Virus record (IMG/VR): IMGVR_UViG_3300000502_000002
Span: 1-53,881 of that record
DNA length: 53,881 bases
From: a virus
Taxonomy: Duplodnaviria; Caudoviricetes
Strand: one strand, 5' to 3'
The position numbers and the translations under genes were made by a program. Under the pieces are notes generated by a model. That model had not been told where the DNA came from and made no database searches. It was given only the letters and a program-made list of their open reading frames with translations. Shown piece after piece: positions 1,109 through 53,881 of this stretch (positions are counted from its first letter, which is position 1; each line of letters begins with the position of its first letter).

Positions 1109-1687
1109 TTAACTTCTAGCGAGCCAACCAGAAAGGAACTCTTTTTGAGTTGGATCTTTTTGTGCAATCCTGCGGTAAAGGGCCTCGGCAAAACTCTCAG
1201 CCCTGTCGCGTAAAACCTTCGGGTCTTTGGCCGTATTGATTGCATTGATCGATATTGGGCCAATCAATCCATCAGGCTTTACGCCAGCAGCTCGCTGAAT
1301 CCAGCGTGCGGGTTTCCGGTAATTACCGAAATGGACATGTTTTTCAAAAAGCCAATTTGATACAACCTGCGGAGCAATTGAATTGTATTCAGGTCGCCAA
1401 AAATTCGCCTCGTAGAAATCCATCACCATTTCCCTGAGCTTGGTGTCAGCCAAAAGAATCCGATCAAGAAGCTTGCGCCACATATCGGCCTGCCTCTTGT
1501 TGCCCTGTGGTTGAGGCCCGATCTTTGCCTTAACGGCGTCAATAATTTTCCAGCCATGCCATTGAGGCCAGTAGTTTCGAGCTATCCCAGAATACGACTC
1601 TCCGCCATGGTCATGCTTATTGAATACCCATCCGCCCTCAATGACCATTAGTGAGGGAATGGCATTAATAAAACTAGCCACCGGCAC
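1109..1687 (-). CDS. Endolysin, glycoside hydrolase family 108 with peptidoglycan-binding C-terminus
   Basis: EGG...D.GG..GI N-terminal motif (IEGGWVFNKHDHGGESYSGI), DG.IGP motif, C-terminal F..GWL.R. Confidence 0.9.
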   Translation of the reverse strand: MPVASFINAIPSLMVIEGGWVFNKHDHGGESYSGIARNYWPQWHGWKIIDAVKAKIGPQPQGNKRQADMWRKLLDRILLADTKLREMVMDFYEANFWRPEYNSIAPQVVSNWLFEKHVHFGNYRKPARWIQRAAGVKPDGLIGPISINAINTAKDPKVLRDRAESFAEALYRRIAQKDPTQKEFLSGWLARS

Positions 1688-1943
1688 CTCCTTTCCTCCA
1701 AGTTTCTAATCCAATTTTCACGATATATCCAAAGCCTCCTAAAACAGCGAGGACAACGGCCGTCCCAACAATTGCGACGGTTTTATTCCATGCGCCAATA
1801 AACCTCTTCACAAGAAAAAAGTCAGACTCTGTCAGGTTGCATTTCCGAGCAACCGGGCAAATAGTATGAGCATCGTCAAGAAAGTGCTCTTGAATAGCCT
1901 CCTTGACGATGCTCTTTAACTCTTCCTTTGTATCTGCTCCCAC
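1674..1943 (-). CDS. Small membrane protein of the lysis cassette
   Basis: 89 aa with one C-terminal TM segment; overlaps the endolysin start. Confidence 0.65.
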   Translation of the reverse strand: MGADTKEELKSIVKEAIQEHFLDDAHTICPVARKCNLTESDFFLVKRFIGAWNKTVAIVGTAVVLAVLGGFGYIVKIGLETWRKGGAGG

Positions 1944-2031
1944 TGGAATCTCCGAAGTTTAAGTTAGTCTAAACCATACACCAACTTTCATTTGTACCAG
2001 AAGGGCAATTTAATTGTTTTTTCGATCAAAC

Positions 2032-5000
2032 TTAAATATCGTTTTCCTGAGTAAAGCGCGCTGTTTTCTTATCCGGCCGGGAATGCAATGCCTGTTTCAG
2101 AGACCTTATTGGCGAAACCAACGACCTTGCCTGGCTGCTCATCAATTGTGCGTTAAACTCAAGCACAAGCTGGTGGGCCTCCTGCCTCCCTTTGGCGCTG
2201 CCATTCTCGAAAAGCCTTCTGATTTTTGCGTACACCTGAGACTTACGTTCTTGCCAGTAATTCTTCAGTTCATAGCCAACGAACTGAAGGTTTGACTGCT
2301 TCGATTGCTCAAGTGGCTGGAACCCTAAAGACCGCTTGAAAGCGTCGGTTCCATCATATTTCACTTGGCTGCCGTCCTTGCCATAGATCGGCTTTCCGCC
2401 CTTCGTTGTCGCCCCTTCACTCGCCAATCGGTATGCTCGCATCGGCCCAGCCATGAATTCTGGAGCGGCAGACTCAAGCGCTCGGTAATAATCCCCATTG
2501 CTGAAGCTGTCAACCGCATTAAAGCCTTTTTGAATCAGTGCCCCGACCGGACCGGTAGCGCTTTCGGTAACGCTATCCCCAGAAATAAAGTTGCTAAGAA
2601 TCGGAACCCTGACCGCCAGTGAATTGCTAATATTCAATCCGACTGTTGAAGGTAGACCATAGAAGATGAAATCGACTGCGGCGTCACCAGGGTCTCCGTA
2701 TTCGCTTGCGTGCTTGTGCATCCAACTTTCGAATTCCAGCCTGTAGTCTTTGCCCGTTATTTTCCGAACCAGCTTGTCAATATCGTCGGCCCCAGGAACT
2801 GCACCGATACCGCCAAGAACAGCGATTGCAGCAATGGCTCGACCAAGGGCAATGACCTGATCGCGCTCGCCACTTGTGGCCCTGTTATACATCCAGTTCA
2901 GAGAGTTGAATGCAAATGACTGAAGGGTGTATACGGTCCTCCCGGCCCAATTCCTTGCCCACTTTGGAAGATTGGCTTTGCCCGGAATAAAATGGACCGT
3001 ATAGACGAACTCAGAAGCTTTATCGAACGCATCCTGGTGGAATGGGTGTTCGGCTGTCGGTTTAAACCCTTGTGGCTGAAACGACCGATACGCTGCCAGA
3101 AATGCAGCCTCCCTATTGATGCGCTCAATAGCCTGGAACGGAGCCATCGTGAATTTGAGTGCTCGCTGTAAATTTTTATCCATAAAGGTGCCGGGGTTTC
3201 GGTCTTCAGCAATCATATCGCCAATTACAGTTTCGTGGACAAGGCCTTGCCGTAAGGCAGTCCAAAGCGCTGCCCGTTCTGACTTTGTTATCTTTTCGGT
3301 TAACCTCCCCTCCCGGCTAGCTGCATAATCAGACAATAGATCAGCGTGGGCTTTGGTCATTACTCGACCGGCACTCTTCGTATACCGGCTAAGCTCAGCT
3401 TGTCCGAAAGTCATGTTCTGGGTTGCGTTAACAACAGCCGAACTCATTTTAAGCCCAAGGAACCATAGAGTAGCAACACCCCTTGCTCTTGCGCTGATAC
3501 GATCTGCGTAACCGGAGTTTGCAAGAGAGTCCTTAACGTAGCTGAATGCCCACTCTTTTGCCTCTGGCTTTGTCTGATTAAGGTTGTGCATTTGCCGAAT
3601 TGCGTAACGCGACTTCGTAACGTAGCCACTTGCGCCCCGGATATATTGGTCAAGCGTCCCATAAACGTCGGAAGTATTATATCCTTCGATAAGATTTGCC
3701 TTCCTCCGGATTTGATGCCGGCCTGCTCCACGAGAAAGTATAGCGTCCGCAGTTTCACGCATCAGCGCGTTGCTGATTTCCTCGAACAACTCAGCGTTAA
3801 TCCCGACCTTCCCGTTAGCGCCATTGATTGCCTTTTGAATGAGCTGCTGAGTCGCAATATCACCGGTAATTGAGCCATACATTTCCTCTGATAACTTATT
3901 GACAATGGTCGGCTCCGGGAACGAATAACTTGCCGCTTCTTTGAAGTTAACAGGCATAAATTCTTTTGGGTTCTCCATCAGTTTCTTGCGAAGCTCTCTT
4001 GCTGCTGCCTTTGAATTGACCATCTGCATAAAGACTTCGCGCCCATCCGAGCCATCCTCATTTTTTTCGTTGACGGATACGCGATAAACGCCATCTTCAC
4101 GGATACGTGGGAACCAGCCATTTATATTGCCTACCTGGCTCTTTAGATCGCGCAGAGCTTTCCTGGACTCAACAAGATTTCTAGCCGCTCTTTTAACGCG
4201 CCGCTCGATGATTTTGTTTTCCATAACCGTCTTCAATGCCTGCCGAAGATCCTCGTCAATATTCTTGTCTTTGACAGTCGTTTGCCAATCGTTTCTTGCG
4301 TCCTTGTCTGTCAGAATCTCGACAAGGGTGTTGAACCATGGCTTATTCTGGTATTCAGGGAATATTAACTTCAGCCCCTGCATATCCATATAAGCCTTAT
4401 AGACATCACTCTCGATTTCAGAAAAATCCATTGCCTCTCTCGAACTCAGCATTTTTCTCAGTCGGGACTTGATCTCAGGCTTATGGTTGTACCGCTCAAG
4501 AGCATTCTCCATTAACTCATTGATCAGCTTCCCACGCAGACCACCGATAAATCCCCTCAGTTCCTTGTAATGCTTAAATGCTGCTTCATCCACATTTCTG
4601 AGCCGCGCATACCTTCTTGCATCATCAATCGTATCGTAGACCACCCCGAAGGCGTCGCCCTCGACAATGAGCTTTTGAACCATTTTTCTTTGCACCGCCG
4701 TTAGGTTGCGGAAGTCTTTTCTTAAATCCTGAAGCGTTCTTTTTTTCCCGTCCCGGGTCTCATATTCCATGAATGACGCTTTGGTCTTTGCGTTATCTTC
4801 CTGGCGCCGTATTTGTTCTTTGACAAAAACCCTGAGCAGTGGATTTTTCTCAGCCTGAAACAGCGGTGTCGCAATTATGTTTCCAATCAAGGTCTTGAGC
4901 CGTTCGTGCATCCTATCTGCAGCAAAGTCATGGATCGCCTTCCCGGCTGCGTACCCATTCAGTTTTGAGTTAACCCGGCGGGTCGTCTCTCTCGTTACCT

Positions 5001-8000
5001 TCTCGGAACCGTTTTTCATTGACTCTCTGGTGGCGGCATCGCTTTCCGATTGCTTCTGTTCAAAGCTAACGCTTCCGCGCTCCTCCTTTAGTTTCCGCCT
5101 AACGAAATCAAATACCTTGATCATCATGTCGCGGAATACTTCATAGGAGCTGCCAAGAAGCTCTTCCATTTTTGCCGTAAAGCTGGCAAGGCTATCGTGG
5201 CCTCCCTTGAGAAGATGCAGACCAAGATCGACCAGCTTCGGGAAGGCTGCTGCAGTATTGCGTTTCAGCTTCACAATCTCCTGAACAAGGGCGTCTACAG
5301 GAATCCCGGAGTTAAGAGTGGTTGTCTTTTCGCCTGACTTGCTTTGGATCGATCCGCGCCCAGCGGCAAACTCCGAGGAGACGCCAAAGGACATTTGGTG
5401 TTCACTGCCGAAGATATCGAGAACGCGGCCAAGGTTTTCGGCGTTGACGTTGGCAACCGCACTTCCCTGAACCTTCCTGTAGTCCCTGGCAAAAAGTGCC
5501 TGCATTTCGTCCGTATAGTATTTTTCCCGAGACCTCTTATCCCCAGGCACCCGAACGGTAGCCTCTCCATTGTAGTGATCATAGGAGATAGAAACCCCAG
5601 GAATGTTGGCGTTAACGGTCGATACCCGCGAGCTTCCAATTTTGGTCTTGAGGTAAGAAAGCGCTGCATCAGCAGTGACAAACGTTGTCTTTCCAAGATT
5701 TTCGGAGGACTCGCCTTTTGGCACAAGGATTCCTTGCCGCGTGTCTCCGTCTTCTGTTGTGAAGTTGACTATTTGGCCTCGGGTTTGTTGGTATCCATAA
5801 AGCAGGTTTCCAGTAACGACACGGACTTTCTCGCGATCCTTTTTCGGTGTGGCCCGGTCCCATCCTTCTGATGAAAACCCGTAGTTTTTCAGTCTTGTCG
5901 CTCTGAGTTGCGTGTCTCTCGACATCGGCAGGGAAATGGTCTGCATTGAGTCAGCAACTGCAAATTCAAGCTCGAAGCGAGAAAGTGCAACCGGGTTCGT
6001 CCCGCGCTTGAACCTCATCCCGGTTAAGACGGCAAGGGGGTTGTACCCCTCTTCAATGTTGACCTCGTAAGTACCGCCAATAACCAGATCGTCGTATTGC
6101 GAGTTAACTCCTTTCAGCGCGTTTCTGATAACCGACGCCGGGTAGGTGATAAGTCTTGAAATGGTGCGTTCCAATTGTTCTGGTTCAAGGTCTGCCTTAT
6201 CCTCTCTTACCTTCGCTTCGTAATCGGCTTCCATTCGATCAAGCTGGCTTATCAGTCCGGCATTATACTGGTCTCTGGTTCTCCCATCGAGGGCCTTGCG
6301 CACCAGCTCTTTGACCTTTTCGGAGTTGTATGGCTTCCTCAGTACGTTAACCTCAAGCGTCTCAAGGTAAGCGCTTGCTGCGAATGGATTGCCCTCGTCA
6401 GCCCCCTGGTGGATAGTGACCGATTCAAGCGTTTTTGCCCGATAGTCAAGATTGCTTGACTTCAGATCGTTCTGCCCGGTCCGGTCAAGATAATCCATCA
6501 AGTCTGAATATTCCTGCTCAACCTCTTCATAAAACTCACGTTGGGCCCTAGACGGTAAGATGGCGATCTTCCCAGAAACCCTCTGGAATAGGCCCTCTGC
6601 GCTGGTGTCGATATCAAGTAATTCGGAAATGTCAGGGTGATTAGCCAGGAACTCCCGTGTTACCGCATCTCCATGGCGGTTCATCATATCGTCGGTTGAG
6701 CGAGTTGAGGAAACGACAGATTCATCGTTTGCGCTGGTGTTGGCATTAAGGCTTGCCATTTTTTTCTGGCGGATAACATTCGGCCGAATTTCTGCTGGGA
6801 GAGATGTCGACGGGAAAATGTATCCCGGCAAAAGAGTCTTCCCGTTATCGTCGGCTACGAGTTGCCCCTTCCTATTGGATCGGCCCATCCCCTGCATCAT
6901 GGTGTTGATGTTCGGGTCAGGCTGAACCATCAGCATTATTCTTCGGCGACGATCGGTCCCTGTCTTCGGCGAGTTATGAAGCGACAGCCCGGTCGATCCG
7001 GCAGAGTTAAAAATAAGGGCGTCTGTCCTTTTATTGTTGAAGTCGATGACAGACTTATTCTTCTCTCCTTTTCTGATTTTTCTCGGCTCAATGGCGATAA
7101 GGTTTTTCTTGCCGTTAGTAAAGTCGTAACGAACGGCATATTTCCTTCCGGTGATTTCACCGACGTTGCAACCCTCATCTCTCATCCGCGCCGCAATATA
7201 GTCAATCGGAGATAGCGGCAGGTCAAGGTCAAGCCTCTCGATCTGGGCCTTGATGCCATAATAAATATCTTGAGCCTCTGGAGTTAACTGCTCAACTGGG
7301 ATAATTGACCTTGTTGAGTTCCCGTAGGGGTCTGTCACTCTAATTCTGCGCGTCCCTTCAAGGGCCTTATCGAGAACAGTAGAAAAGTCGGCGCTGACTG
7401 CTTCACCAAGAGAATACCCGCTCGCATCAATAAAATGCTCAAGCGTTGATTCCATGGTGTTCGTCAAATTAATAATCGGCTTTTCGCCTCTCTTGAAAAT
7501 TTCGATTGCCCTGTCCGCGGTCATATCGGCTTTCAGGGCTAGAAGGAGCTGCGAAACGATATTGTGGACAATTGACGAAAAATTGGTGCTGGTAACACCG
7601 GCAGACGTTGATTCTTCACCGGTGACGGCCATGCCGTTTTCCTGTGCATCTTGGTTCATATTGTCGACCGATTTAGACTTCAGCTTGTCAAACTGGACGA
7701 TTCGGCGCAGGATGGCCGTAACCTGGTCGGCTCGTTGTTCATCTCTTGCGGCGTTGGTGGTATCAGTCTCATAGGCAATACTAATGCCATCCCAGCTCGA
7801 TTCTCGCCGGATCATCTGCCCGGACTCGGCAAGTAATGACGCTATGGCTTGTTGCAGTGGAACCCCGCCGCGAGCCATAGCATCGATAAGCCCTTGCCTG
7901 CTTAGACCAGACGAGCCGATAGCCGTTCTGAAATAAATCGGGATGTTGTCGGGTCGCTTGGCGAACGTGGCCGACAGGTACAGAACACCGGCCGCATCTT

Positions 8001-11000
8001 GAAGTGCCGCAGAAAACACCTTTCCTCGGTTGGAGTCTCCTGCCGCCTCATGCGCTTCGTCCATGACGACAATATTGTCTACTGATAGCTGTGTGAGGAT
8101 TTGGCTTTGCAGCTTCTTCATACCCTCTTGGACCTGAGAATATGACGTAAAAACAACACCATAACCATGATCTTTAAACCATTGCTTAACGTTCCCACTA
8201 TCAAGGATCTCTTGGTATAGGGAGCTATCGCCATGCCTTTTTATTAAAACTTCTCCGCTCCCGTCCACAATATCCGAGTCGGGGTTGCTGTGCATGATAA
8301 AGGGTTTCATGTCGCCATACCCGATATCGTTCAGGTCTCCCCACATGTCAGTAAACAGTTTTGGTAAAGCGGTGGTAAAAACAGGGACATGTTCATTCAG
8401 GTTTGCATACCGGATAATGGCCGCTGCCGAACGCCCCTTGCCGACCCCTGTTTGGTCGCCAATGATAATAGCTTCGCCTTTATCTATCGCATCTACGGCA
8501 AGGGCAACGGCGTCTATCTGTTCGGCGGAAAGAGCTTTCCATAAGTCGTTTACGCTCCCGTACTGAAGTTTTTCAGTGAGGTAGTCGTCGACCGTCTTCC
8601 CTGTTTCGTCCTCAAGGGATTCAAGCGCCCCTTTAACCTTCTTCTCCATGTTAACGGGAATAAGGTTTCCGCCAGGTTCGCGGTTTGATTGTGGAGAGTA
8701 TGGAGCTTGGAATTTATTCCTCTTTGGCATTGCAGCCTTATTCGGCTTGCCATTTCTACTGGGGACTTTCTCCGGAGAGCTTTCTGTTTTTACTTTTGCA
8801 GCGTCTCTGGTTGCTGATTCTGACACTGCGCCGTTGATATCTGTTGCGTCAACTGCCGCGTCATTATCCATTCCAGAGAACTGGTCTCCGTAATTTGAAC
8901 TGATCGCCTTATACCAGCCCTTCAGGTGCGGCTTAACTCCTTCACCAAAGGCTTCAACCATTGTCTTTGCAAAGTCTGAAAACTTGCGGATACCCTTTTC
9001 GATGTGGTATCCGGCAATTTGTATCCCGGCAGAAAGTAGTTCCGGGTCGAACCCGGAGTTAACCTGCGATAGTTTTTTGCGCAAGATAGCTGCAGCTTTG
9101 TCTGCGGCCTCTTGCGTGAAGATTTTATTCTGCTCGCCTCCGGTTAATCGAGACTTCCCAGACCCGACGGGTTTAGAGCCGACAGAAGAAATGACAGAAG
9201 ATCCACGTCTTCTATCGGCAGCTTCGCCATTTCGTTCACTGCGCGCTCCACTCCCTCCGGATCCGCCGTCTCCTGCGTCTGAACTACTGTCAGCACTTCC
9301 TCGGCTATTGCGGACGGAGACATTGCGCTCATGTTCCCGCTTAGATGCAATCTCGGCTCTCGCAGCTGTATCTCCCGCATCATCTGCGCTATCGTTTCGA
9401 GCCCCTCTTTCTTGGCCATCTCTTGATACTCCGTCATTATCCGAGACAGTTGGTTCTCTGTTTTCATGCTGATTGACATAGGTCTTCCCTCCTTCTGTCT
9501 TGAGAATATCATAAAGTCTATCGAAGGTGTCTGCGGTTTCGACCTGGCCGCTTCTTGCCGGGGCGAACTCTTTGTCAGGAATGGACTTGCGACCGTCGAC
9601 AGCAATAACCCTGATATCGAAAGAAGTCCCTTGGCGGCGATATAAATCGCCATTAACATCAACGTTATGGGCAACGTTATAGTGGCTGTATAGCCAGTTA
9701 AAAAACATCCGGTCAGGCTCAGACATGCGGCCTTTCCCGTTGAAGTTATGTCCGCCAATGATAAATGCTGCTTTCCCGTCGTTGGTCATTTGCTCAAGGG
9801 ATTTTGCGACAATCAAATGCTCTAACTTGCTGATCGGAAAACCATCAATTTTAACAGGCTTGATACTTCCGAAGGGGGGGTTTGCAATAATCCGCTCCGC
9901 CTTCGGCAGACCATAATCGGACAAATTAAGATCGGTTGCGTCGGTATTAAAAACGTTGCCTTCCGGAACGCCATTATCCTTGAAGAATGCTTTCAGGTTG
10001 TCGAGCCTCGCACCGCTGTCTAGCTCATTTACAATAACGGAATCGAGGTCTTCTGCTCCAGAAATTAGCGCACCATTCCCGGCAGTCGGCTCATAGATAA
10101 GCATCCCGCCATTTTCATCGATACCAAGCCAATGCTGCATTAACGCGGCTATCGGAGACGGAGTAGAATACTGCTGCTTGCTCATTGACTTGCCGGTCCG
10201 CATCAAGAGGTTTGGCTGTCTCTTATACAATCTCTTGATCTTCTCGAACTTTGCGTCGAATGAACCCGGACCTCGCATGACCTCTCGGGCCTTCTTGACA
10301 ACCGCCAGTTCCATGGCCTCTTCAACAGCCTTGTGGTCATAATCTCCGGAATCGTTAAGTTCAGAAACCTTTTTCCCCCACAGGTCGGCCAGAGCCTTCT
10401 TTACTTGAAATTTGTCAAGGCTTGCCACATCTCTGTCTAAACTCCCGATCATCTCGCCAAATCTCTTCGACAAGCCAACCGTATTCACCTTGCTGGGTGT
10501 TCCGTGGTCAACATCGGCCTCTACTACCGCTCCCTTTTCTGCGGTTGCGGTTGCCGCAGCCATGGGAATTGCGGCTGCACTTCTGACTGCGTTCTGGGTT
10601 GCACGCTCCGCAACATCTTCAGTGGTGGCAGCGTTTTCTGATTCGGCTGTCGTCACGTTAACTTCAGACCTTAGCGGCTTGCCTTGATCTCCTCTACCTA
10701 ACCAGTCCTTAAGCCCGTCAATTGAAGTCTCGGTAATGGCCCCAGCACGTTGTGGGCCTGATCCATCACTAAACCCGCCATCGTAGATTTTTTTGGCTTC
10801 GCCTAGCGAGTTTGCCCCAATAATTACTTTATGTTCGTCAAAAGCTCCGGTATCCGGATCGACCTGATCGACAATGAAGGCCTTTTCACTCTGGGGATGT
10901 TCACCAATGTAAACATCGACTTGATCGCCATCAGCCCCTTCAGTCCTCTTAAAATAGCCATAGTGGGCAGGCATCTCGACAGACCACGCTTCACCATTAG

Positions 11001-37049: not shown

Positions 37050-37050
37050 C

Positions 37051-44731: not shown

Positions 44732-44795
44732 CAAAAGAACAAAGAGAAGTCATAGAAAGCTATCGTTACTCCAGCACAGAGGAAGAGGTTTCAGA

Positions 44796-45026: not shown

Positions 45027-45034
45027 CAGACAAC

Positions 45035-45063
45035 AAAAAGCCGGGGCATTACGTAGCCCCGGC
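45035..45063 (-). terminator. Intrinsic terminator between convergent operons
   Basis: GCCGGGGC-8 nt-GCCCCGGC with a T5 tract on the minus strand. Confidence 0.7.
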
Positions 45064-45069
45064 CAAATC

Positions 45070-45426: not shown

Positions 45427-45656
45427 GACATATCCCCCCTCCCGGACCTTCCGACTCTAACTTCTGCATAAGCACCGGCGCTAAGCTTTTGCAGCTCAGC
45501 ATAAGCATCGTCAGTCATTGACAGAAAGGCAACTTCGTTGTCACCTATACCAATGACGCACTCAACCCACCGACCAGCCCGTCTGGTAACAGCAGGGGGC
45601 TCAGTCACTCTATGCCCCTTCATCAATTGTCCCAAATAAAACAAATTCACGTCCAC
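45423..45656 (-). CDS. Hypothetical protein
   Basis: 77 aa, SD AAGGAG, ATGA overlap. Confidence 0.55.
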   Translation of the reverse strand: MDVNLFYLGQLMKGHRVTEPPAVTRRAGRWVECVIGIGDNEVAFLSMTDDAYAELQKLSAGAYAEVRVGRSGRGDMS

Positions 45657-45657
45657 A

Positions 45658-45822
45658 CTAACTCTCCTTTCGTTTTAACTCGCCGCAAGCCGGTGTTGAC
45701 GGGTAAACTTTACATCCCGTTTCTCCGCAACTACCGACTTCATAGTAATCAAACCTCGACGCCACAAACCTTGGGCAGCTCCCACAAAAAAGCATTCCCC
45801 TCTTCTGGCTTTTCTCGCTCAT
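45658..45822 (-). CDS. Small Cys-rich protein (54 aa, not in ORF track)
   Basis: MSEKSQKRGMLFCGSCPRF...GSCGETGC...PAC; SD AGGAAGGA. Confidence 0.5.
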   Translation of the reverse strand: MSEKSQKRGMLFCGSCPRFVASRFDYYEVGSCGETGCKVYPSTPACGELKRKES

Positions 45823-45955
45823 AGTAAAATTCCTTCCTTTCCCTCAGATTCCTTATCAAATCGGCAGCCAGGTAACGACCCCAACAACCATGCTTTCGTT
45901 CAACACAGATAAATTTAGACCCATCCTAGCAATTGTTTTGCATATACGGTCCCAT

Positions 45956-47290
45956 TCAATTGTAATTCTTGGCCAGCGGAAAGAATGTTCCAATCTCTCC
46001 GCGCCACATCAAATTGACCGTTCCTATCGGGCCATTACGCTGCTTGCCAAAAATGATTTCGGCATCACCGTAATGCTCGGCTCCGCAATCTTTCCCGGCG
46101 GCCTTACATTTTGGACAATAGACGGCCTCGCGGTAAACGAACGCGATAACATCAGCATCCTGTTCTATCTGCCCGGATTCCCGCAGGTCAGACATGATCG
46201 GTCGCTTGTTTTCTCTCGACTCAAGCGACCGGCTAAGCTGGGACAACGCGATAACAGGCACCATTAACTCTTTCGCGAGAGCCTTCAGACCTCGACTGAT
46301 CGCGCTAATTTCCTGCAACCGACTCTCAGCCTTGGTAGTCATCAGCTGGAGATAGTCCACGATGATAAGGCCAAGGCGATCATGCATGTGCAACCTACGG
46401 GCTTTGGCCCTCAGCTCAGACAAGGATATCGCGGGCGTATCATCGGTAAAAATCTTACGACCTGCCAAGTCTCCGAACGCCGTTGTAAGTCTAGGCCAGT
46501 CCATATCGGAGAACGTCCCGCTCCGAAGGCGAGACAGCGGAACCCTAGAAACCGTTGCCGTAAACCTGTCGTAAAGCTGGCTGCGGCTCATTTCAAGCTC
46601 AAAAATCACCGTCTTGACCTTCGCCGCTAACGCTAGATTTAAAGCTAACGCGGTTTTCCCCATCGACGGCCGGCCAGCAATAATAATCAGGTCTCCAGGC
46701 TGCCAGCCGGTCGTCATGGCATCCATGTCAGGAAACCCTGTTGTCAGGCCCGTAAGTTCACCACGATGGTTGTACCGGTGTTCATATTCCCTCGACAACG
46801 ATCTGACGGCAGTTGTCGAATCAACAACGCTGCTTGTGTTATGTCGAGCAGCGTCACTCAATTGCAGAACTAAGCTCTCCGTCTGATCGAGAGCGTCTTC
46901 CCCGCAAAGCTCATGCCCAATACTGACAATCTCAGCACCTAGCGCGATAACCAGACGCTTGAGCGATGCGTCTCTTACCAACTTGACGTAGTAGTCAACG
47001 TTAGCAGCACTCACAACAAATTCAGAAAGCTCAGCAAGATAAGACACACCGCCAACAATCTCACGGTTTTCATTAAGGGTGGAGCTGACAGAAATAAGGT
47101 CAATTGGTTCATGGCTGTCAAACAAAGATAGCATTGCCTCGTAAATCATACGGTGAGCCGTTTTGTAGAAGTCTTCCGGCTTCAGTCCAGCCTCGATAAT
47201 AGCTCCAATGGATTCTGCTCCCCCCAAAAAGACAGCTCCCAGAACAGACATTTCCGCTTCAATATTCTGCGGCTTGGCTCGGTCTTTCAT
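45956..47290 (-). CDS. dnaB: Replicative DNA helicase DnaB (phage-encoded)
   Basis: PQNIEAE.SVLG, AGRPSMGKT, IVDYLQL, LSQLSR, SDLRESGQIEQDAD and KQRNGP motifs. Confidence 0.97.
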   Translation of the reverse strand: MKDRAKPQNIEAEMSVLGAVFLGGAESIGAIIEAGLKPEDFYKTAHRMIYEAMLSLFDSHEPIDLISVSSTLNENREIVGGVSYLAELSEFVVSAANVDYYVKLVRDASLKRLVIALGAEIVSIGHELCGEDALDQTESLVLQLSDAARHNTSSVVDSTTAVRSLSREYEHRYNHRGELTGLTTGFPDMDAMTTGWQPGDLIIIAGRPSMGKTALALNLALAAKVKTVIFELEMSRSQLYDRFTATVSRVPLSRLRSGTFSDMDWPRLTTAFGDLAGRKIFTDDTPAISLSELRAKARRLHMHDRLGLIIVDYLQLMTTKAESRLQEISAISRGLKALAKELMVPVIALSQLSRSLESRENKRPIMSDLRESGQIEQDADVIAFVYREAVYCPKCKAAGKDCGAEHYGDAEIIFGKQRNGPIGTVNLMWRGEIGTFFPLAKNYN

Positions 47291-48177
47291 TCCAGCCCCG
47301 CCTCCCTCATTGTTGCCTCAAACTGCGCCCTCTTTCGTGCCCGGCGCTCAATCTCTTCCTGAGATAATTGCTCTTCAACCTGCTCCGAAGCCGTCTTTGC
47401 TGTGTTGTTCAGATAACCTTCGAACTTGCTGGCTCGGAATAGCGTTGCCGGTCTGAGGTATTTCATCATTTCCCCATCATTGCCCCATTCCCTGACCTGG
47501 TTGTCAATCGCAAGCTTGCAATCATCTACCGAAAATCCTTCTCTGAATCTTGCCGTTATGATGTCAACGTTAGCTTTTGATTTCGTCGAGTATGTCTTTC
47601 CTGTTTTCTGATTCAGGTATTCAATGACCTGGTACACAGAGTCGGACTTCAGGCCGACAGGAGCCGAAGGCTCTTTTTCTTTTTCTTGTTTTTCTTTTAT
47701 ATCCATTCCATTCCCTTCCTTTCCCTTCCTGTCATCCCCAATGTTTCCCGGATGTTTCCCCAATGTTTCCCCAATGTTTCCATTGTTATCAATGGCATCG
47801 ATAACCAACGTCATTTTAGATACTTGTGGGTTTTTTGCTTTATCGACAGCTTCTTTTCCGGTGATCCTCTGGTGTTCGGTAAACGTTGGGATGTAGCCAT
47901 AGAGCTTTCCATCATATTCCATCCGAGTTATCAGCCCATTTTCAGCAAGTAGTAATAGGGTCTTCTCAAGTGTTTCCCCAATGTTTCCCCGCCATACAAA
48001 GGGAAGAATATCTAACGCGAGCTGCCTTGGCCTCCACTCGAATACCCCCTGCTTGTCGCAGTGCCCCCACAATCCACAGAAGACAAGCATCGGCCTCATT
48101 TCAAGATGCTTCTCTTCAAGGTCTTGCAGCTTTTCATGCCTGAAAAAATCAGGCTTGATGGTCCTTATTCGTGCCAT
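47287..48177 (-). CDS. Phage replication initiator with conserved phage C-terminal (Phg_2220_C-like) domain
   Basis: MARIRTIKPDFF N-terminus; I.YLN.KTG and YLRP.TLF..SKFEGYLN C-terminus; internal iterons. Confidence 0.88.
   Translation of the reverse strand: MARIRTIKPDFFRHEKLQDLEEKHLEMRPMLVFCGLWGHCDKQGVFEWRPRQLALDILPFVWRGNIGETLEKTLLLLAENGLITRMEYDGKLYGYIPTFTEHQRITGKEAVDKAKNPQVSKMTLVIDAIDNNGNIGETLGKHPGNIGDDRKGKEGNGMDIKEKQEKEKEPSAPVGLKSDSVYQVIEYLNQKTGKTYSTKSKANVDIITARFREGFSVDDCKLAIDNQVREWGNDGEMMKYLRPATLFRASKFEGYLNNTAKTASEQVEEQLSQEEIERRARKRAQFEATMREAGLE
47736..47779. repeat. Replication-origin iterons (4 x 11 bp, consensus CCCCAATGTTT)
   Basis: Tandem units at 47736, 47747 (variant), 47758 and 47769; more copies at 47971-47990; adjacent T/pyrimidine-rich tract. 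Confidence 0.75.
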
Positions 48178-48201
48178 AGCGTTAACCTCGCTGCTTAATG
48201 G

Positions 48202-48387
48202 TCAGTCTTTTGGGGTACCTGCCACTATCGTTTTTTTTATGACGCGCTTGGCCCGTTGCTGAGCAGCAAACATCATAAATCTAGTTAAGGATCTTCCGTC
48301 TTCCTTAGCCGCTTTTGCGAGGTATCGCTTTTCATCATCCGTCATATAAACCGGGAATGTTTTCGTTTTACCTGTCTCTTTCGCCAT
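48202..48387 (-). CDS. RHH/DUF1778-like DNA-binding protein
   Basis: TFPVYMTDDEKRYLAKAAKEDGRSLTRFM; start ATG 48387 after GGAG. Confidence 0.75.
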   Translation of the reverse strand: MAKETGKTKTFPVYMTDDEKRYLAKAAKEDGRSLTRFMMFAAQQRAKRVIKKTIVAGTPKD

Positions 48388-48466
48388 AACTCCGCTCTCC
48401 TGTATTTGATCAACCCGCCGCACAAGATGGTATGCGGCGGGATTATGGCTAAACCATGCCTACCGT

Positions 48467-48895
48467 CTAATAAGGAAATTCTTCTTCGGGGTTGAACGTA
48501 GGTTCTTCGTATCCCTGCCTTGGCTCATCTTCCCATGGATCCTTGCCGCTTTCTTGCTCTCGGGGATCAGTGTCGCTTGCATCCCAGACAATCCACCGAA
48601 TTTTCATGCGCTCATGTCCGGTGCCCTTATCTTTCCAGTATTCCGGCCTTGGAGTCGCGTTGGTGATATAGATGGCCTGCCCCTTAATGAACTGCATACC
48701 TAGAATTTGCTCAGCAGTGGCCCCAAATGCAACGCAGTCGAACCAAACCACCTTATTGCGACTATCTCCCTTCTTATGGGTATTGAAGGCGACTGAGAAC
48801 TCACAAACGGTTTTCCCGGCGCGTGTCTTTTTAGCTGCGCTTTCAGGTGCGCGGCCCAAGTGTCCAGATATTGCTAACTTCACATAATTCGGCAT
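48467..48895 (-). CDS. ssb: Single-stranded DNA-binding protein
   Basis: G.LGR.PE, FSVA.N, WF.C.AFG..AE and KG motifs, acidic tail EEEFPY. Confidence 0.88.
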   Translation of the reverse strand: MPNYVKLAISGHLGRAPESAAKKTRAGKTVCEFSVAFNTHKKGDSRNKVVWFDCVAFGATAEQILGMQFIKGQAIYITNATPRPEYWKDKGTGHERMKIRWIVWDASDTDPREQESGKDPWEDEPRQGYEEPTFNPEEEFPY

Positions 48896-48906
48896 GAACT
48901 AACCTT

Positions 48907-49815
48907 TCACTTCTTGTCGGCTGGGAACTCGTCGTCATCCCCAGGCTCTTGCTGTTTATGACTGTCACCACCAGGCTCTTCTTCGAAGTCGGTGCTATCA
49001 ACCTCTATGGCGCGAGACGTGATTTCGCTAATGTCTTGCGCGGCCTCTGGATCAAATACGCTAACTTTGCCGTCAGCATCGATGGAGCCGGACTTTTCAA
49101 CCGAGGCTGGGAGCCAGACATAACTCATGCGCACGATGGTCTTCATGACCATCGCTTCAAAGTCGGTTCTCCAGGGGCCTTGATCTTTTGCTTTTGAGCG
49201 TTCACGCCGCTTGAGAATTTCGTACATCGGGTAATAAAAAAAGTCATCACCTCCAGCCTTGTAGCGCACAATGAGATACCCACCGATTAACCTACCCGGC
49301 TCTGTAAACGATTCATCTTTTCTGATATGCCAGGGAATGTGCGTTAACTCGTCTTTTTCGGACGTAAATTTCAGATCCATGATGTCGTTCTCGTAGACAA
49401 GGCGCACTTTTGGAATACCAATGGTAGCGCCGGAGCGCTTAACCAGCTCAAGCTCGCCACGATAGCCAATAATAAACTGGCACTCATAACAATTACGGTT
49501 CCGATTTTTATACGGAACTAGATATGCCCGGCCCTCAAGGCCAATCTCAAGGCCAAGGGCTGCCGAACGCATCATGGCGCCATAAACGGTTGTGCGATCA
49601 CATTGAGCGAGCAGTGGGTTATTCCGCATTTCTGTCAGGACCAATCGACAAAGACGGTCTGCGGTCAGGTTAGTCGCCTCCGGGAGCGCCATGGCAAGTT
49701 GCGGCTTGAGCGATTCGAGCGCCATTGCGAATGTTTTGGCCGGGGCCTTATTTGCTGCCTCGGACTTCTTGAGTAATTTTCCACCTACATCATTATTTGG
49801 CTTTCCTGTAGCCAT
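48907..49815 (-). CDS. recT: RecT family single-strand annealing recombinase
   Basis: A.LGLE...G.AYLVPY, QFIIGYRG..EL..RSG and GPW.TDFEAM..KT motifs; start MATGKP after AAGGA. Confidence 0.92.
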   Translation of the reverse strand: MATGKPNNDVGGKLLKKSEAANKAPAKTFAMALESLKPQLAMALPEATNLTADRLCRLVLTEMRNNPLLAQCDRTTVYGAMMRSAALGLEIGLEGRAYLVPYKNRNRNCYECQFIIGYRGELELVKRSGATIGIPKVRLVYENDIMDLKFTSEKDELTHIPWHIRKDESFTEPGRLIGGYLIVRYKAGGDDFFYYPMYEILKRRERSKAKDQGPWRTDFEAMVMKTIVRMSYVWLPASVEKSGSIDADGKVSVFDPEAAQDISEITSRAIEVDSTDFEEEPGGDSHKQQEPGDDDEFPADKK

Positions 49816-49937
49816 CTCAATTCCTTTCAAATTTTGCACTTTCTCCAATTGGATTGGAGATATGGTTAAAAAAAACTTCTCCTTTGCGGAAACAACTAAA
49901 TTTCCGGGAGTGCGGCTTTTGACTCCAACGACCCTGG

Positions 49938-50942
49938 CTATTTCAGTTCTTTCTCTTTGAGTATTTTCACACTGAACCGACGGCTTAATGTCTCCTTCAG
50001 GTAACGGCGGTAGATTTTCGGTGCGCGTTCTTTCATTACCTCGGTGTCCAGTCTTTCGGTTGTGCTATTCTTCCATTTCAATTGGATTTCCCCACAAACG
50101 GCAACCTGTGCGTTTTCCATGATCCCTTTCATTTTGTTCTCGGCCTCACGCTTCCGCCCCTCAGCTTCTTTAATGTCGGCTCCGGCAACCTCTCTTTGGC
50201 TGACTAGCGACATAATCTCTTCCTTGCGATCAATGGGAATCTCGACGATCTTTCCATTATCTTCCGGGTAGAGCATCTTCAGGAGGTTGGTACTAATCTC
50301 GGATCCGTCAAGATCAGGCGGAGTGCGGTTGACAACCATTTCCCAAAAATCAAGTTCGGCACATTTTATTGCGTCGATAATATCCTCGTCGCGGTCGATC
50401 CTGAACGGTCCCACGTATTTCTGACCACCGACAAGGCAAGCGATATACCAGAACGGCAACCCCGTCACCATCATGTAGTGATGGCACTGAATTTGGTATG
50501 CCTCAGGAACTGAGCCTTCGGCCCAAAGATTTGACATAAATTGATTTGCTGTTTTGCACTCCAGCCCACCGAGGCCGAGCCTCTTGTCAAAAACCAATCG
50601 ATCTACATTGGCAAGCAAAAAGGGATGTTCGGGATGGGCCAACAGATAGGGGTAGGTCAAAACTTTTGTAATCGCTGCCTCCCGTCTTTTCGCTTCGACC
50701 GCAACAATATCTTCAAGCTGGTGGCCCCAATATGCCGCCTCGTTCTGGTCATCGTTCTCTTCCGCAGGAGTAATCTTGTCGAAGTAGAGCGACAGTTTAT
50801 TATTCCAGCTCGAAAAGCCTAATATGGCGGGGGCGTCACTGCCCCCGATACCATTCTTACGCATCCCTAGCCATTCAGTGCGCGTTAACGTGCCTGTATT
50901 GCAAACATGAGGGACTTTAATCAGCCTTTCCATTTCACTCAT
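49938..50942 (-). CDS. YqaJ-like viral recombinase exonuclease
   Basis: WL..RK.GIGGSD, WG..LE, ANVDR, LECKT and Y..Q..HYM.VTG motifs. Confidence 0.92.
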   Translation of the reverse strand: MSEMERLIKVPHVCNTGTLTRTEWLGMRKNGIGGSDAPAILGFSSWNNKLSLYFDKITPAEENDDQNEAAYWGHQLEDIVAVEAKRREAAITKVLTYPYLLAHPEHPFLLANVDRLVFDKRLGLGGLECKTANQFMSNLWAEGSVPEAYQIQCHHYMMVTGLPFWYIACLVGGQKYVGPFRIDRDEDIIDAIKCAELDFWEMVVNRTPPDLDGSEISTNLLKMLYPEDNGKIVEIPIDRKEEIMSLVSQREVAGADIKEAEGRKREAENKMKGIMENAQVAVCGEIQLKWKNSTTERLDTEVMKERAPKIYRRYLKETLSRRFSVKILKEKELK

Positions 50943-50944
50943 AT

Positions 50945-51280
50945 CTATTCAATATCCTTTCCGACTCTTATTGCGATCCGTTTTCTGAGCGCTTCGATCC
51001 TTTTCCCAGCTTCGACAACGATGTCCGAAAGCCTAACAAACTCAATTAAGAGGTCTTCGTAACCGTAATCATTTAAGTATGCATAGTCATCTTTGACATT
51101 CATTATCGGTGCATCGCCTGCCTCCTCATCCACCTCCTTGCAGTTACAGGCGCATTCATTATTATGGGTGCATACTTCATTGGCTCCAGCGTTGCTCATA
51201 CTTTGTCCTCCTGGGCATATCGCCCATCTAGCAATTAAAGGGTTGATCAAAAAGCAGATAGGATTGTATTTTTTATCCAA
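50945..51280 (-). CDS. Hypothetical Cys-containing protein
   Basis: 111 aa abutting the YqaJ gene; TTG start lies inside the palindrome at 51278. Confidence 0.5.
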   Translation of the reverse strand: MDKKYNPICFLINPLIARWAICPGGQSMSNAGANEVCTHNNECACNCKEVDEEAGDAPIMNVKDDYAYLNDYGYEDLLIEFVRLSDIVVEAGKRIEALRKRIAIRVGKDIE

Positions 51281-51683
51281 TTCAATTGCAATATAATTCT
51301 ACTATGATTCTATTTTTCTAAAGACATGTTTCATGTTTTCGACATTTCATATTGGCTGGCACAACGCTCATATGCTATCTATTATGCAGAAAAAAAAGCC
51401 AAATCATTCCAATTGATTAGGGAAATTTATAATCACTCATAATAGGAAAAACCTATTCCCGATCAAATTTATAGCAATTGCATCAACTCATTGTTTTTTA
51501 ATACGATACAGGAGTGAGAAATCTCCAAAACAAAGATTAGGTAAAATTAAATTTGCTATTTTTTTGCTATTGAAGTAATACTATTTACACAATTCAATTT
51601 TATTTTAGTTTTTTTTTGATGGAAAAGAGGTTTGTTTTTTTTAACAGAACAGGTCGTGACATAACACAGTGAGGAGCGGGGAA

Positions 51684-52229
51684 ATGGATAAGGGAGCCAT
51701 GACGGAGAATCAAAACGAATTGGGGGAAAAAGTAGAAACAAAAAAAAGGCGATATAGAAAAGGTAAATTTCTACAGAGGGAGGAACGTCAAGAGTTAGCA
51801 TTGAAGTTGGATCGCCGGCGCGAGGAGGTAGGGTGGGACAATATAAACCAGTTTGCAGGGTCAGGCGTTGTCCCGCTGAGTGGCGAAGCGGTTAGGAAAG
51901 TTCTGCGGGGCGAGGCAACTACCGTAGAGGTATATACCTTAGTTATGATCTGCAAGTTTTTAAACTATCAACCGGCAGAGATCAAAGAGTTCTTGCAAAA
52001 GTACACCGACGACAAACACCTATGGCCAATGCTTGGAGATCGCGCATACAACATGTTTGAAGAGGCCCTACATGAGTCTGTTAATGCGATCATCGAGTCA
52101 GACCCAAGCGCCCAGGAACAGATAGCTACAATGCTCGCGATAATGGCAAAGGGTGCAGGGGTGGACATATCCAAATACATGCCTATACTCAAAGGCCTGA
52201 AAGCCGGTAAGCCGCAAAAACAAGGATAG
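51684..52229 (+). CDS. XRE/Cro-C1 HTH transcriptional regulator, probable immunity repressor
   Basis: L...R...G......FA......S...V.KV.RG.......TL..IC..L HTH pattern; divergent from the lytic replication operon and upstream of int. Start could be 51684 or 51699. Confidence 0.7.
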   Translation: MDKGAMTENQNELGEKVETKKRRYRKGKFLQREERQELALKLDRRREEVGWDNINQFAGSGVVPLSGEAVRKVLRGEATTVEVYTLVMICKFLNYQPAEIKEFLQKYTDDKHLWPMLGDRAYNMFEEALHESVNAIIESDPSAQEQIATMLAIMAKGAGVDISKYMPILKGLKAGKPQKQG

Positions 52230-52253
52230 CAGCGCACCGGGGGGAGAACAAAG

Positions 52254-53462
52254 ATGGCAGTCGTTAAACGAATCCACTGCAAGTCCTGCGGAGCTGACAC
52301 ATTCGCCGAGAACCCGCCAAAATCCGGCACGGTCCCATGCCGGAAATGCGGACTAGAAGCTACAGTGTCGGACAAATGGTACGTCAGAATGAGATTGCCG
52401 GTATCCGATGGAAAATCTAAGCTCTACTCAAAAGCCGTATCGAAAAAGATAAAAGAAGCAAAGGCGCATGAAGCAGACCTAACCGCAAGAAAATTCAAGG
52501 AAGAATACTTTGACGCAAAGAAAAAAATTCCTTTCAGTGATGCCGCCCACCAATTCCTAGAAGATTGCCGCCAGCGGGTAGCTGAAAAAAACTTAGGGGC
52601 GCGCTCGTATGAAACCTACAAAGGGATCATAGAAACAGTCCTGAACCCTTATTTTGGGAATACTGACGTTAGCGAGATTACTCCAAAAGCCTGCGAACGC
52701 TTCAAACAGGACCGAATGAAGGACACGAGACGTTACTATTCTCCTACCGATGGAGTCATCGAAAGCGATAAAACAGTTAGCTTTGCTACAGTAAACCGCG
52801 GCCTGGCAACTTTAAGCTGCATTATGAGCTATCTTAAAAAAGAAGAAGTCATTGATAGCAACCCGGTAAGCTTGGTTGCCAGGCTTAAAGAAGACAACAA
52901 GAGGGATAAGTTTCTAACGCCTGAAGAAGTTGACTTATTGCTTGATACCTGCAAAGAGAGGTCGAGTCATCTATTTATGGCTACGCTTCTTGCTCTTGAT
53001 GCTGGACTAAGAAAGTCCGCCTGCTTCAATCTCAGGTGGAAAAATATAGACTTGAAAAACAACCAGCTGTCAGCATTAACGAAGGGAAATAAGATTGTTT
53101 TCGTTCCGCTGACAGAGCGGCTAAGGAAAGAGCTGATAGCTCACAGAATGAAACAGGCCGCTAAATCCATAAATGGGTATGTCATACCGTCACCAAAAAA
53201 CCCGGAAAAGCCGATGCGGGTAGACGCGAACTTTGGCTTTGAGACTGTTTGCCGTGACCTTGGCTTTGAGGACTTTGTATTTCATGACTTGCGCCACACC
53301 TTTGTGTCAATCTTCATCGCACGCAACAATGGAGATATCTACACATGCTCAAAGATTGTCGGACACTCAACGACATACATGACAGAAAGATACGGCCATC
53401 TACTAAATGAGGCGGCACAGAGGGCTATGCAGAGATTCGGCGGTGGGGAATCGCAAAACTAA
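52254..53462 (+). CDS. int: Tyrosine integrase with N-terminal CxxC..CxxC motif
   Basis: Catalytic set GLRKS (R), TKGNK (K), HDLRH, GH and RY; adjacent to att. Confidence 0.95.
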   Translation: MAVVKRIHCKSCGADTFAENPPKSGTVPCRKCGLEATVSDKWYVRMRLPVSDGKSKLYSKAVSKKIKEAKAHEADLTARKFKEEYFDAKKKIPFSDAAHQFLEDCRQRVAEKNLGARSYETYKGIIETVLNPYFGNTDVSEITPKACERFKQDRMKDTRRYYSPTDGVIESDKTVSFATVNRGLATLSCIMSYLKKEEVIDSNPVSLVARLKEDNKRDKFLTPEEVDLLLDTCKERSSHLFMATLLALDAGLRKSACFNLRWKNIDLKNNQLSALTKGNKIVFVPLTERLRKELIAHRMKQAAKSINGYVIPSPKNPEKPMRVDANFGFETVCRDLGFEDFVFHDLRHTFVSIFIARNNGDIYTCSKIVGHSTTYMTERYGHLLNEAAQRAMQRFGGGESQN

Positions 53463-53489
53463 CAACTAAAAACACAGAACACAGTTTCG

Positions 53490-53518
53490 GCCGCATCTTA
53501 AATGATGCGGCTTTTTTT
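53490..53518 (+). terminator. Intrinsic terminator of int
   Basis: GCCGCATC-6 nt-GATGCGGC followed by T7. Confidence 0.8.
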
Positions 53519-53548
53519 ATTCTTATAGCGATTCACAAGGGTCAAAAA

Positions 53549-53621
53549 GATACCAACCGAATTGTGAAAAACATCGATTTTTTCACAATCAAATTGGGTA
53601 ATGGTATCACCATGGTATCAC
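53549..53621. promoter_or_regulatory. Putative integrase arm-type sites (right arm)
   Basis: ATGGTATCAC direct repeat at 53601 and 53612; inverted GATACCA at 53549-53555. Confidence 0.7.
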
Positions 53622-53782
53622 AAGAAAAATCCTTACAATTCAAGAACAACCAAGCCAGACAGCCTAACTATTTGTTATACTGACTTTTTTTAAACAATTT
53701 AATTGTATAATAATTACAACCACTTACACAATTCAATTGTGCCTATTGTCACTTTTTGATTGTGTTGTGTCTCACGGCCACC

Positions 53783-53821
53783 AAAAAACAAAAGCCAGTA
53801 AGTATCTAAACTTACTGGCTT
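53783..53821 (-). terminator. Phage-supplied terminator downstream of the tRNA
   Basis: 12-bp stem AAGCCAGTAAGT/ACTTACTGGCTT with a T-rich tail on the minus strand. Confidence 0.75.
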
Positions 53822-53859
53822 AGCGGGGGAGTTAATCGAATCAACTTTCCCAATTTAAT

Positions 53860-53881
53860 TGGCGCGCCAGGAAGGATTCGA
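53860..53881 (-). tRNA. 3' end of tRNA (Arg, UCU by the matching left-end fragment); partial, att core
   Basis: Reverse complement TCGAATCCTTCCTGGCGCGCCA is T-loop, T-stem, acceptor stem and CCA. Confidence 0.85.

Follow-up and report, generated by a model that had tools for sequence, protein, structure and literature searches.

Which protein reads a short palindrome that recurs from one end of a phage genome to the other, and what would it do there? We address this question for the IMG/VR virus record IMGVR_UViG_3300000502_000002 (Duplodnaviria; Caudoviricetes), which is 53,881 bases long, classed as linear, and estimated to be 92% complete. The record was analyzed over its whole length, which we refer to as the window. 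Judged from its sequence, the window is a temperate, podovirus-like phage integrated at a tRNA gene. The palindrome is the 11-bp CAATTNAATTG, present in 12 perfect copies. The reading that we favor, and hold to be rather probable, is that CAATTNAATTG is the operator of the phage's own repressor, a 181-residue protein here termed P0002, which would keep the phage operons quiet.

Frequency of the palindrome

An earlier reading of the same DNA, made from the letters alone (the original prediction), had listed 12 perfect and nine one-mismatch copies of the palindrome, and all of them (12/12 and 9/9) were found where it had placed them. In 100 dinucleotide-preserving shuffles of the window, perfect copies occurred with a mean of 0.11 and a maximum of 2. 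When up to one mismatch was allowed, the 21 matches compared with 2.85 expected and a shuffle maximum of 8, and about three of the nine one-mismatch copies could be chance occurrences.

Non-coding DNA amounts to 4,066 bases, 7.5% of the window, according to a gene model in which starts were corrected by ribosome-binding sites. This small fraction holds 9 of the 12 perfect copies (binomial P 1.4e-8), in agreement with the earlier count of nine copies outside genes or at gene starts. Five of the nine one-mismatch copies (38182, 45952, 49846, 51590 and 53586) are likewise intergenic or at gene boundaries. Two sequence features of a dispersed operator network are present, namely a short motif repeated far beyond expectation and its concentration in non-coding or promoter DNA, with the reservation that the promoter calls are weak.

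It had been allowed from the outset that AT content by itself might account for the frequency of the motif. It does not, because the non-coding DNA shuffled alone (GC 41%, 2,000 dinucleotide shuffles) yielded a mean of 0.015 copies and never more than 1. Under Markov models of order 1-4, 0.02-0.10 copies were expected. As a background, 61 bacterial genomes of 1.2-6.8 Mb contained 0-21 copies of CAATTNAATTG each, similar to a reversed-pattern control, compared with 12 copies in the 0.054 Mb of the window.

Conservation ends sharply at the 11-bp core. Among the 24 half-sites, the adjacent outer base was most often C (10) or A (9), less often G (5) and never T. Beyond the core, two types of flank were seen: a TCCAATTNAATTGGA-like type at sites 37635, 38847, 40731 and 53851, and a 13-bp form, ACAATTNAATTGT, in T-rich surroundings at sites 38381, 53695 and 53729.

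Placement of the sites

Gene blocks were derived from the open reading frame (ORF) listing and from PHROG and Pfam scans, of which the PHROG scan took in 53 proteins. A leftward block of 37 kb, from 37632 down to 244, carries the structural and lysis genes: a DUF4406 protein, a kinase, RusA, the large terminase, the portal, a scaffold-like protein, the major head protein, internal virion proteins, a 2274-residue tail protein, a 3512-residue virion protein, and the lysis genes. A rightward block (38668-45026) comprises the AAA_5, DUF7192 and Nmad5 genes. The early leftward block, from 51202 down to 45070, encodes RecE-like, RecT-like, SSB, ribbon-helix-helix, replication initiator and DnaB-like proteins, and ends in a strong hairpin that resembles a terminator (45064-45039). 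At the right end, the genes for P0002, a helix-turn-helix (HTH) protein, and for a tyrosine integrase form a rightward pair. The 12 perfect sites and the five one-mismatch sites at gene boundaries or between genes are distributed over these blocks as follows (sites unstranded).

1375 to 1385, perfect site inside the endolysin gene (1109-1687, minus strand)
2006 to 2016, perfect site in the gap between the gene for the 3512-residue virion protein (stop 2032) and the first lysis-block gene (start 1943)
15975 to 15985, perfect site between genes, with the minus-strand ATG at 15955 following 19 nt downstream
28465 to 28475, perfect site within the scaffold-like gene (28190-29215); the major head protein starts about 310 nt downstream, at 28151
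37635 to 37645, perfect site that extends to a 15-bp palindrome when the flanks are counted, heading the 37-kb leftward operon of structural and lysis genes; repeat family D7
38182 to 38192, one-mismatch site in the 1-kb non-coding control region
38381 to 38391, perfect site of the 13-bp form ACAATTNAATTGT, beginning 8 nt past the -10 of the best promoter-like match
38847 to 38857, perfect site within the plus-strand gene for the AAA_5 ATPase (38668-39912)
40731 to 40741, perfect site between the DUF7192 gene, which stops at 40703, and the Nmad5 gene, which starts at 40773
45952 to 45962, one-mismatch site at a gene boundary in the early operon, covering the stop codon that ends the DnaB-like gene
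49846 to 49856, one-mismatch site between the RecE-like and RecT-like genes
51278 to 51288, perfect site before the early recombination and replication operon, lying over both the -35 and the spacer of a promoter-like match that faces left
51590 to 51600, one-mismatch site 84 nt upstream of the ATG of the P0002 gene
53586 to 53596, one-mismatch site in the att arm, 4 nt from ATGGTATC direct repeats
53695 to 53705, perfect site of the 13-bp form in the att arm, adjoining the -10 of the leftward promoter-like match 53736-53707
53729 to 53739, perfect site of the 13-bp form in the att arm, containing the -35 of the same match, 34 bp from site 53695
53851 to 53861, perfect site reaching into the tRNA 3' end, whose terminal CA it overlaps

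The three copies inside genes (1375, 28465 and 38847) all encode N-S-I, and the rightmost copy touches the tRNA CCA, both as originally described. Two start codons required revision. The TTG at 51280, over which site 51278 had been placed, is probably not a start, as the ATG at 51202 is preceded by a GGAGGA ribosome-binding site, and with a start at 51202 site 51278 is intergenic. Site 37635 does lie directly before the ATG at 37632, as had been noted, but this ATG may be superseded by one at 37596.

Several sites were found on or next to promoter-like sequences. The best match in the region, TTGACA-17-TATCTT (38345-38373, plus strand), agrees with 10 of 12 consensus positions and is the one followed by site 38381. 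TTGCAA-17-TACAAT (51291-51263) faces leftward into the early operon and is covered by site 51278. In the att arm, the -35 of the leftward TTGAAT-18-TATTAT lies under site 53729 and its start region under site 53695. The distance from a site to the next start codon ranges from 2-40 nt to about 310 nt, and this variability argues against a promoter element and for an operator or a roadblock.

Several further repeats share these regions. Between the two divergent large blocks, about 1 kb (37597-38667) lacks a convincing gene; it contains a nine-G run and several operator-like repeats, and gave no Rfam match. Within it, at 38196-38269 and thus between sites 38182 and 38381, three CTTATAAG palindromes are spaced 35 and 31 bp apart (3 found compared with 0.5 expected; 3 were reached in 1 of 100 shuffles). 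They are possibly the site of a second regulator. The ATGGTATC direct repeats (8 copies compared with 1.09 expected) are found at 102-127, 37914-37933 and 53601-53619; those near both prophage ends resemble integrase arm-type sites, and the further occurrence is mid-genome. A 12-mer, GGCCTACGGATT, precedes the ATGGTATC repeats both at the left end (6-17) and at 37840-37851, which suggests that the mid-genome copy may be an internal duplicate of one att arm.

A candidate repressor beside the integrase gene

The protein that had been singled out at the start as an XRE protein is still the best candidate reader. The features at the right end are:

51684 to 52229, plus strand, gene for the candidate binder P0002, 181 residues, with a Cro/cI-type HTH domain and a C-terminal helical domain (modeled dimer interface)
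52254 to 53462, plus strand, tyrosine integrase gene, directly downstream of P0002
53860 to 53881, minus strand, last 22 bases of a tRNA gene (T-loop to CCA), marking the prophage junction

On the minus strand of the right end, the T-loop, T-stem, acceptor strand, G73 and CCA are readable. ARAGORN makes no call because only the last 22 bases of the tRNA fall in the window. The tRNA 3' end at this position is the reason for assuming a temperate phage integrated at a tRNA.

With the integrase on one side and the divergent early operon on the other, the P0002 gene occupies the place that is classical for a phage repressor. Its own control region carries the palindrome, as the 481-nt gap upstream of the gene holds perfect site 51278 and one-mismatch site 51590. 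Together with the integrase neighbor and these flanking sites, the dimer model described below and a homologue associated with a different 11-bp palindrome in a related phage make P0002 the best candidate.

A full phmmer scan identified 64 representatives of the P0002 family at E <=0.001, 15 of them at <=1e-10, and most are about 150 residues long; a word-indexed search found no relative of P0002. Pfam detected HTH_26 in 2 and HTH_3 in 1 of 59 family members at E up to 0.01. The family is uncharacterized and without a Pfam entry. Other searches added little: P0002 and the integrase had no match in viral contigs, P0002 and its relative P0008 had none among sequenced phages by tblastn, and of the family members P0008, P0067 and P0004, only P0067 was found when viral and metagenome contigs were searched, in viral contigs. 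The integrase had one distant match in bacterial genome contigs (29% identity), in a Selenomonas metagenome-assembled genome. A P0002-family profile gave 0 matches in 401 genomes of the phylum of this Selenomonas, a result that says little.

An AlphaFold model of P0002 built with the family alignment reached a pLDDT of 88.2, compared with an unusable 50.6 for the single-sequence fold. The nearest solved folds according to Foldseek were Cro/cI-type domains, those of C.AhdI, P22 c2, SinR, lambda cI, 434 and Stl (probability 0.8-1.0). In the top row, C.AhdI, the TM score on the target was 0.76 and the root-mean-square deviation 2.2 over 69 columns, with E >=0.14 in all rows. A homodimer model had an ipSAE of 0.54 compared with 0.00 for the best control, and in three runs at least 69% of contacts were in common and the partner pLDDT was at least 77. 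The mark applied to such models is reached by 20 of 30 solved homo-pairs and by 1 of 23 single chains. The modeled interface is formed by the C-terminal helices (residues 112-171), and the prediction supports P0002 being a homodimer.

A related phage with a different palindrome

A DNA search with 23.9 kb of the window against sequenced phages gave no match, and portal identity to HMO-2011-type and Rhizobium podoviruses is only 25-33%. None of four searched records of terminase relatives (about 60% identity) contains CAATTNAATTG. One of these relatives, G001 (54.9 kb; L009-L011), has neither the P0002 family, nor CAATTNAATTG, nor CAAC-N3-GTTG.

Another relative, G010 (66.5 kb), shares with the window the portal (51% identity), terminase, head protein, RecE, RecT and integrase, and is the sole relative in the comparison with a P0002-family member. 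This protein is 37% identical to P0002, and its gene adjoins the integrase and faces the early operon, as in the window. G010 has 0 copies of CAATTNAATTG and 6 copies of CAAC-N3-GTTG (shuffle mean 1.5; 6 reached in 1 of 300 shuffles). One copy lies 8 nt past TTGACA-17-TAAACA beside the repressor gene, with T-rich flanks, in the same layout as window site 38381. A large non-coding region has TTGACA..TATGTT at its edge, and the 17-nt spacer of this sequence holds another copy; one is in the terminase/portal gap, and two are in a 77-bp direct repeat near the record ends. The palindromes of the window and of G010 have the outer CAA...TTG in common and differ in the inner bases, as would be expected if the repressor variants had diverged in specificity.

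The 77-bp repeat of G010 (L055 1-77, L058 5876-5952) contains the phage's own palindrome, CCAACTTGGTTGG. A tRNA-like 3' fragment is present about 100 bp before the right-hand copy of the repeat, where ARAGORN calls no tRNA. Notably, G010 too has a palindrome copy in its att-like repeat.

The same palindrome beside XRE-type genes of other phages

A scan of IMG/VR for two CAATTNAATTG copies 15-45 bp apart returned 41 stretches. Most of them are AT-rich tandem repeats unrelated to this phage. From 28 of the 41 loci, 48 neighboring ORFs were scanned; loci with the pair within a long ORF or repeat and duplicate loci were left out. At 5 of the 28 (L012, L016, L020, L023 and L038), XRE-type genes adjoin a switch region that contains the pair. 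L047 has the same switch-region sequence as L023, so that four lineages are represented (L012, L016/L020, L023/L047 and L038). In L016 and L038, CAATTNAATTG falls exactly into the 17-nt spacer of TTGACA..TATAAT. MarR-like genes were found among 0 of the 48 ORFs.

These operators resemble the sites in the window in the palindrome itself, often in the same TCC..GGA flanks, and in their location in or beside promoters, and they adjoin genes for XRE-type repressors and Cro-like proteins. Unlike the window, the other records have only 2-4 copies, clustered at the switch save for one distant copy in G005, and the XRE proteins of these loci align with P0002 at 13-21% identity. From this comparative pattern we infer that CAATTNAATTG is a recurrent XRE operator, and that its spread over a whole genome is the special feature here.

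Proposed action of the repressor

If CAATTNAATTG is the operator of P0002, the protein would dimerize through its C-terminal helical domain and place its two HTH units on the outer CAA/TTG triplets, one per half-site. In the lysogen, P0002 dimers would occupy two promoters, that of the early leftward operon (51278) and that of the rightward operon (38381). They would also sit where the 37-kb operon of structural and lysis genes begins (37635), and probably on the repressor's own promoter region (51590). The copies at gene boundaries (2006, 15975, 40731, 45952 and 49846) and the three intragenic copies would halt leak-through transcription in the 37-kb and 6-kb operons; such internal copies would either cover unrecognized internal promoters or, to judge from their position, act as roadblocks. 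The four att-arm copies would silence the promoter-like sequence facing the integrase gene and, again judged from position, may influence excision and so tie it to immunity as originally proposed. The proposal that one dimeric protein governs all lytic operons is supported in part and indirectly, by the presence of an operator-like palindrome on promoter-like sequences at the heads of transcription units and by the dimer model.

Several observations weigh against this reading. The score of P0002 against Pfam HTH_26 (21.0 bits) is below the curated cut-off of 22, and Foldseek gave no match at E <=0.001. There is no evident Cro-like partner, as the first early gene (85 residues) has no family match. 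Promoter-like matches are no commoner than in shuffles (17 found compared with 19.9 expected in 36000-53881), so that each promoter call is weak alone. The scan used a sigma-70-like pattern, which may not be the promoter type of the host, and it gave no match near the internal sites 2006, 15975 and 28465. The co-variation of palindrome and repressor is supportive, not decisive: it comes from one relative, the excess is modest (6 compared with 1.5), and 2 of the 6 copies belong to a single duplicated att-like repeat. Finally, the gene that follows the promoter site in G010 is, by eye, of the ribbon-helix-helix type, and the 11 bases of CAATTNAATTG are the core of the OhrR box, so that a host protein could bind instead of P0002 or as well. 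The last two points lead to other possible readers.

Other possible readers of the palindrome

The palindrome might be read by another small dimer encoded by the phage, such as a ribbon-helix-helix protein, a CopG-like protein or an unrecognized Cro analogue, acting as an early/late regulator rather than as the lysogenic repressor. A single ribbon-helix-helix dimer would fit a palindrome that is only 11 bp long and leaves its central base free. Of this type, the window has one clear protein and one weak candidate:

48202 to 48423, minus strand, alternative binder; early-operon gene for a TacA1/NikA-like protein of the ribbon-helix-helix type (TacA1 E 3.8e-7)
44144 to 44308, plus strand, gene for a 54-residue protein with a weak CopG-like match (E 0.17), alternative binder

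The G010 gene mentioned above, the first past the promoter-proximal palindrome, encodes a 50-residue protein that is ribbon-helix-helix-like by eye. However, the ribbon-helix-helix genes of the window adjoin no cluster of sites, and in the other lineages with a CAATTNAATTG operator, XRE-type regulators are found on both sides of the switch. We therefore regard a small dimer of this kind as unlikely to be the reader.

A structural or processing signal, with no operator function, would be another explanation: a phage promoter element, a site for a nucleoid or DNA-bending protein, or a target of DNA modification. The T-rich flanks, and AATT tracts that would narrow the minor groove, are compatible with it, as are the four copies in the att arm, the usual place of bending proteins, and the Nmad5, DUF7192 and AAA_5 genes of the phage. 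A promoter element is difficult to reconcile with the wide range of site-to-start distances described above and with a palindrome, which has no orientation, and the PHROG scan revealed no phage RNA polymerase or sigma factor. Nucleoid proteins normally need no 10 invariant bases, and in other phages the same site is an operator in a switch flanked by XRE genes. The chance that the palindrome is such a signal appears small.

The third candidate reader is a host protein, OhrR or another winged-helix repressor of the MarR family, acting alone or with a phage protein. Reduced OhrR would sit on the phage promoters until an organic hydroperoxide oxidized it and lifted the block, making oxidative stress an input to phage gene expression. 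The OhrR box is given as TACAATTNAATTGTA in B. subtilis and A. tumefaciens, and ACAATTNAATTGT was footprinted in S. avermitilis (PMC6034001). CAATTNAATTG corresponds to the invariant core of the boxes given in these published accounts, and all 12 sites match this 11-bp core, while the 13-bp ACAATTNAATTGT is matched by 3 of the 12 (38381, 53695 and 53729). According to the same source, OhrR bound targets with 2-3 mismatches to the 13-mer, which would bring all 12 sites within reach (PMC6034001).

In spite of this identity, which the original prediction does not mention, we rank a host OhrR low, because the phage has no MarR or OsmC gene and the flanks of the box are not kept (see the half-site counts above). 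Six-frame searches of the window with PF01047 and PF12802 (MarR) and with PF02566 (Ohr/OsmC) gave 0 matches at E up to 10. The box and the window sites share an identical core and differ in number, with one or two boxes at a single promoter compared with 12 dispersed copies; OhrR has a MarR fold, whereas the solved folds nearest to the model of the candidate reader P0002 are of the Cro/cI type. Next to viral CAATTNAATTG pairs, the ORFs of DNA-binding families (in the 5 of 28 loci) were all XRE-type. G001 and G010 lack CAATTNAATTG, and G010 has a different palindrome together with a different repressor variant, which fits phage-specific immunity better, although the hosts of these relatives may differ. 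Titles and abstract openings of the literature that names OhrR together with prophage include no OhrR-controlled prophage among the matches listed. Taken together, we consider it quite improbable that OhrR or a relative is the reader. A far-reaching version, in which the host OhrR box stands at all control points, OhrR alone or with the phage repressor silences the prophage, lipid-peroxide-type oxidative stress and not DNA damage induces it, and the copy at the tRNA end and the att-arm pair put excision under a redox switch, is in our view very improbable.

The ohrA operator oligonucleotide consists of two tandem OhrR boxes (PMC2651793), and their period of 15 bp recurs in three unrelated IMG/VR contigs (L031, L040 and L049), which contain CAATTNAATTG in tandem arrays of 3-5 copies. 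The neighboring ORFs scanned at these arrays included no recognizable regulator.

Four ideas were discarded. A hairpin promoter for a virion RNA polymerase, as in N4, has no basis in the 3512-residue protein, which matched only DarB-like and lysozyme-like PHROGs, and would be too weak with a 4-bp AT stem. As an integrase core site the palindrome fails, since its 1-bp spacer cannot be an overlap region. A rule for the orientation of the central base (C on the sense strand at 6 sites) fails because the N-S-I frame dictates 3 of these and because sites 37635 and 51278 are opposite, and a MarR-like role of the 193-residue protein adjoining site 37635 finds no family match in its acidic, Cys-rich sequence.

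Comparison with known dispersed operators

Repression by P0002 through CAATTNAATTG would resemble control in known temperate phages. Epsilon15 (NC_004775) is, like the phage in the window, a temperate podovirus with an HTH repressor gene. Its record annotates 7 'repressor' protein_bind sites of 16-17 bp, which are predicted: three are beside the repressor gene, and four are dispersed before terminase, structural, tail-fiber and resolvase genes. Both genomes thus combine a cluster at the switch with copies heading distant gene blocks. The window differs in its 11-bp core, its 12 perfect copies, three of them intragenic, and its four att-arm copies. The epsilon15 repressor gp38 is annotated as PF01381, whereas P0002 remains below the Pfam cut-off. 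No relation in sequence was seen between the regulators of the two phages, which were not directly compared.

An orientation bias is a hallmark of stoperators, and it is impossible for a palindromic site. Cluster A mycobacteriophages (L5 gp71, TipsytheTRex) are described as having many repressor sites genome-wide, often in short gaps within operons, that stop elongating RNA polymerase (PMC9283540, PMC6550527). Window sites 2006, 15975, 40731, 45952 and 49846 are positioned like these stoperators, and the five sites at gene boundaries and three inside genes fit their intra-operon character. Stoperators are reported to be asymmetric and to be read by a monomeric two-domain repressor (PMC9283540), which contrasts with the perfect palindrome and the modeled homodimer here. 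The likeness to L5 that had been proposed holds, then, for the dispersed and partly intra-operonic arrangement, and fails for the symmetric site and its predicted dimeric reader. Dispersed control by a repressor is already known; what is new here is the site, the repressor family and the unusual copy density.

Other features of the genome

Within the gene for the large virion protein (2032-12570, 3512 residues), a lysozyme-like/DarB-like region spans residues 445-1366, and the remainder gave no match. Four iterons of about 15 bp (TTCCCCAATGTTTCC-like, repeat family D6) lie inside the replication initiator gene at 47734-47988 and are probably the replication origin. Rfam gave no match anywhere in the window.

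A set of genes resembling those for DNA modification occupies 35180-37049 and 38668-42301: an AAA_33 kinase, DUF4406 (nucleoside deoxyribosyltransferase-like), the AAA_5 ATPase, DUF7192, Nmad5 and phrog_10079. These genes suggest that the phage DNA may carry a modified base. The palindromic hexamer GTTAAC is present in 46 copies in the whole window (9.08 expected; maximum 20 in 100 shuffles), mainly in coding DNA and frequently extended to GTTAACG(C/T), and G001 has 81 copies. The excess concerns a restriction-type palindrome and is common to related phages with DNA-modification-like genes.

Significance

These results provide a regulatory map for an uncultivated temperate phage, made up of one 11-bp site, one candidate repressor and about 17 control points. 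They also point to a likely function and a likely DNA target for a family of proteins of about 150 residues that has 64 public representatives and no Pfam entry. The window and G010, whose palindromes seem to differ in the inner bases together with the repressor variant, form a pair that offers a small natural system for a change of immunity specificity. That the palindrome is identical to the OhrR core also serves as a reminder that cross-talk between host regulators and phage operators may occur.

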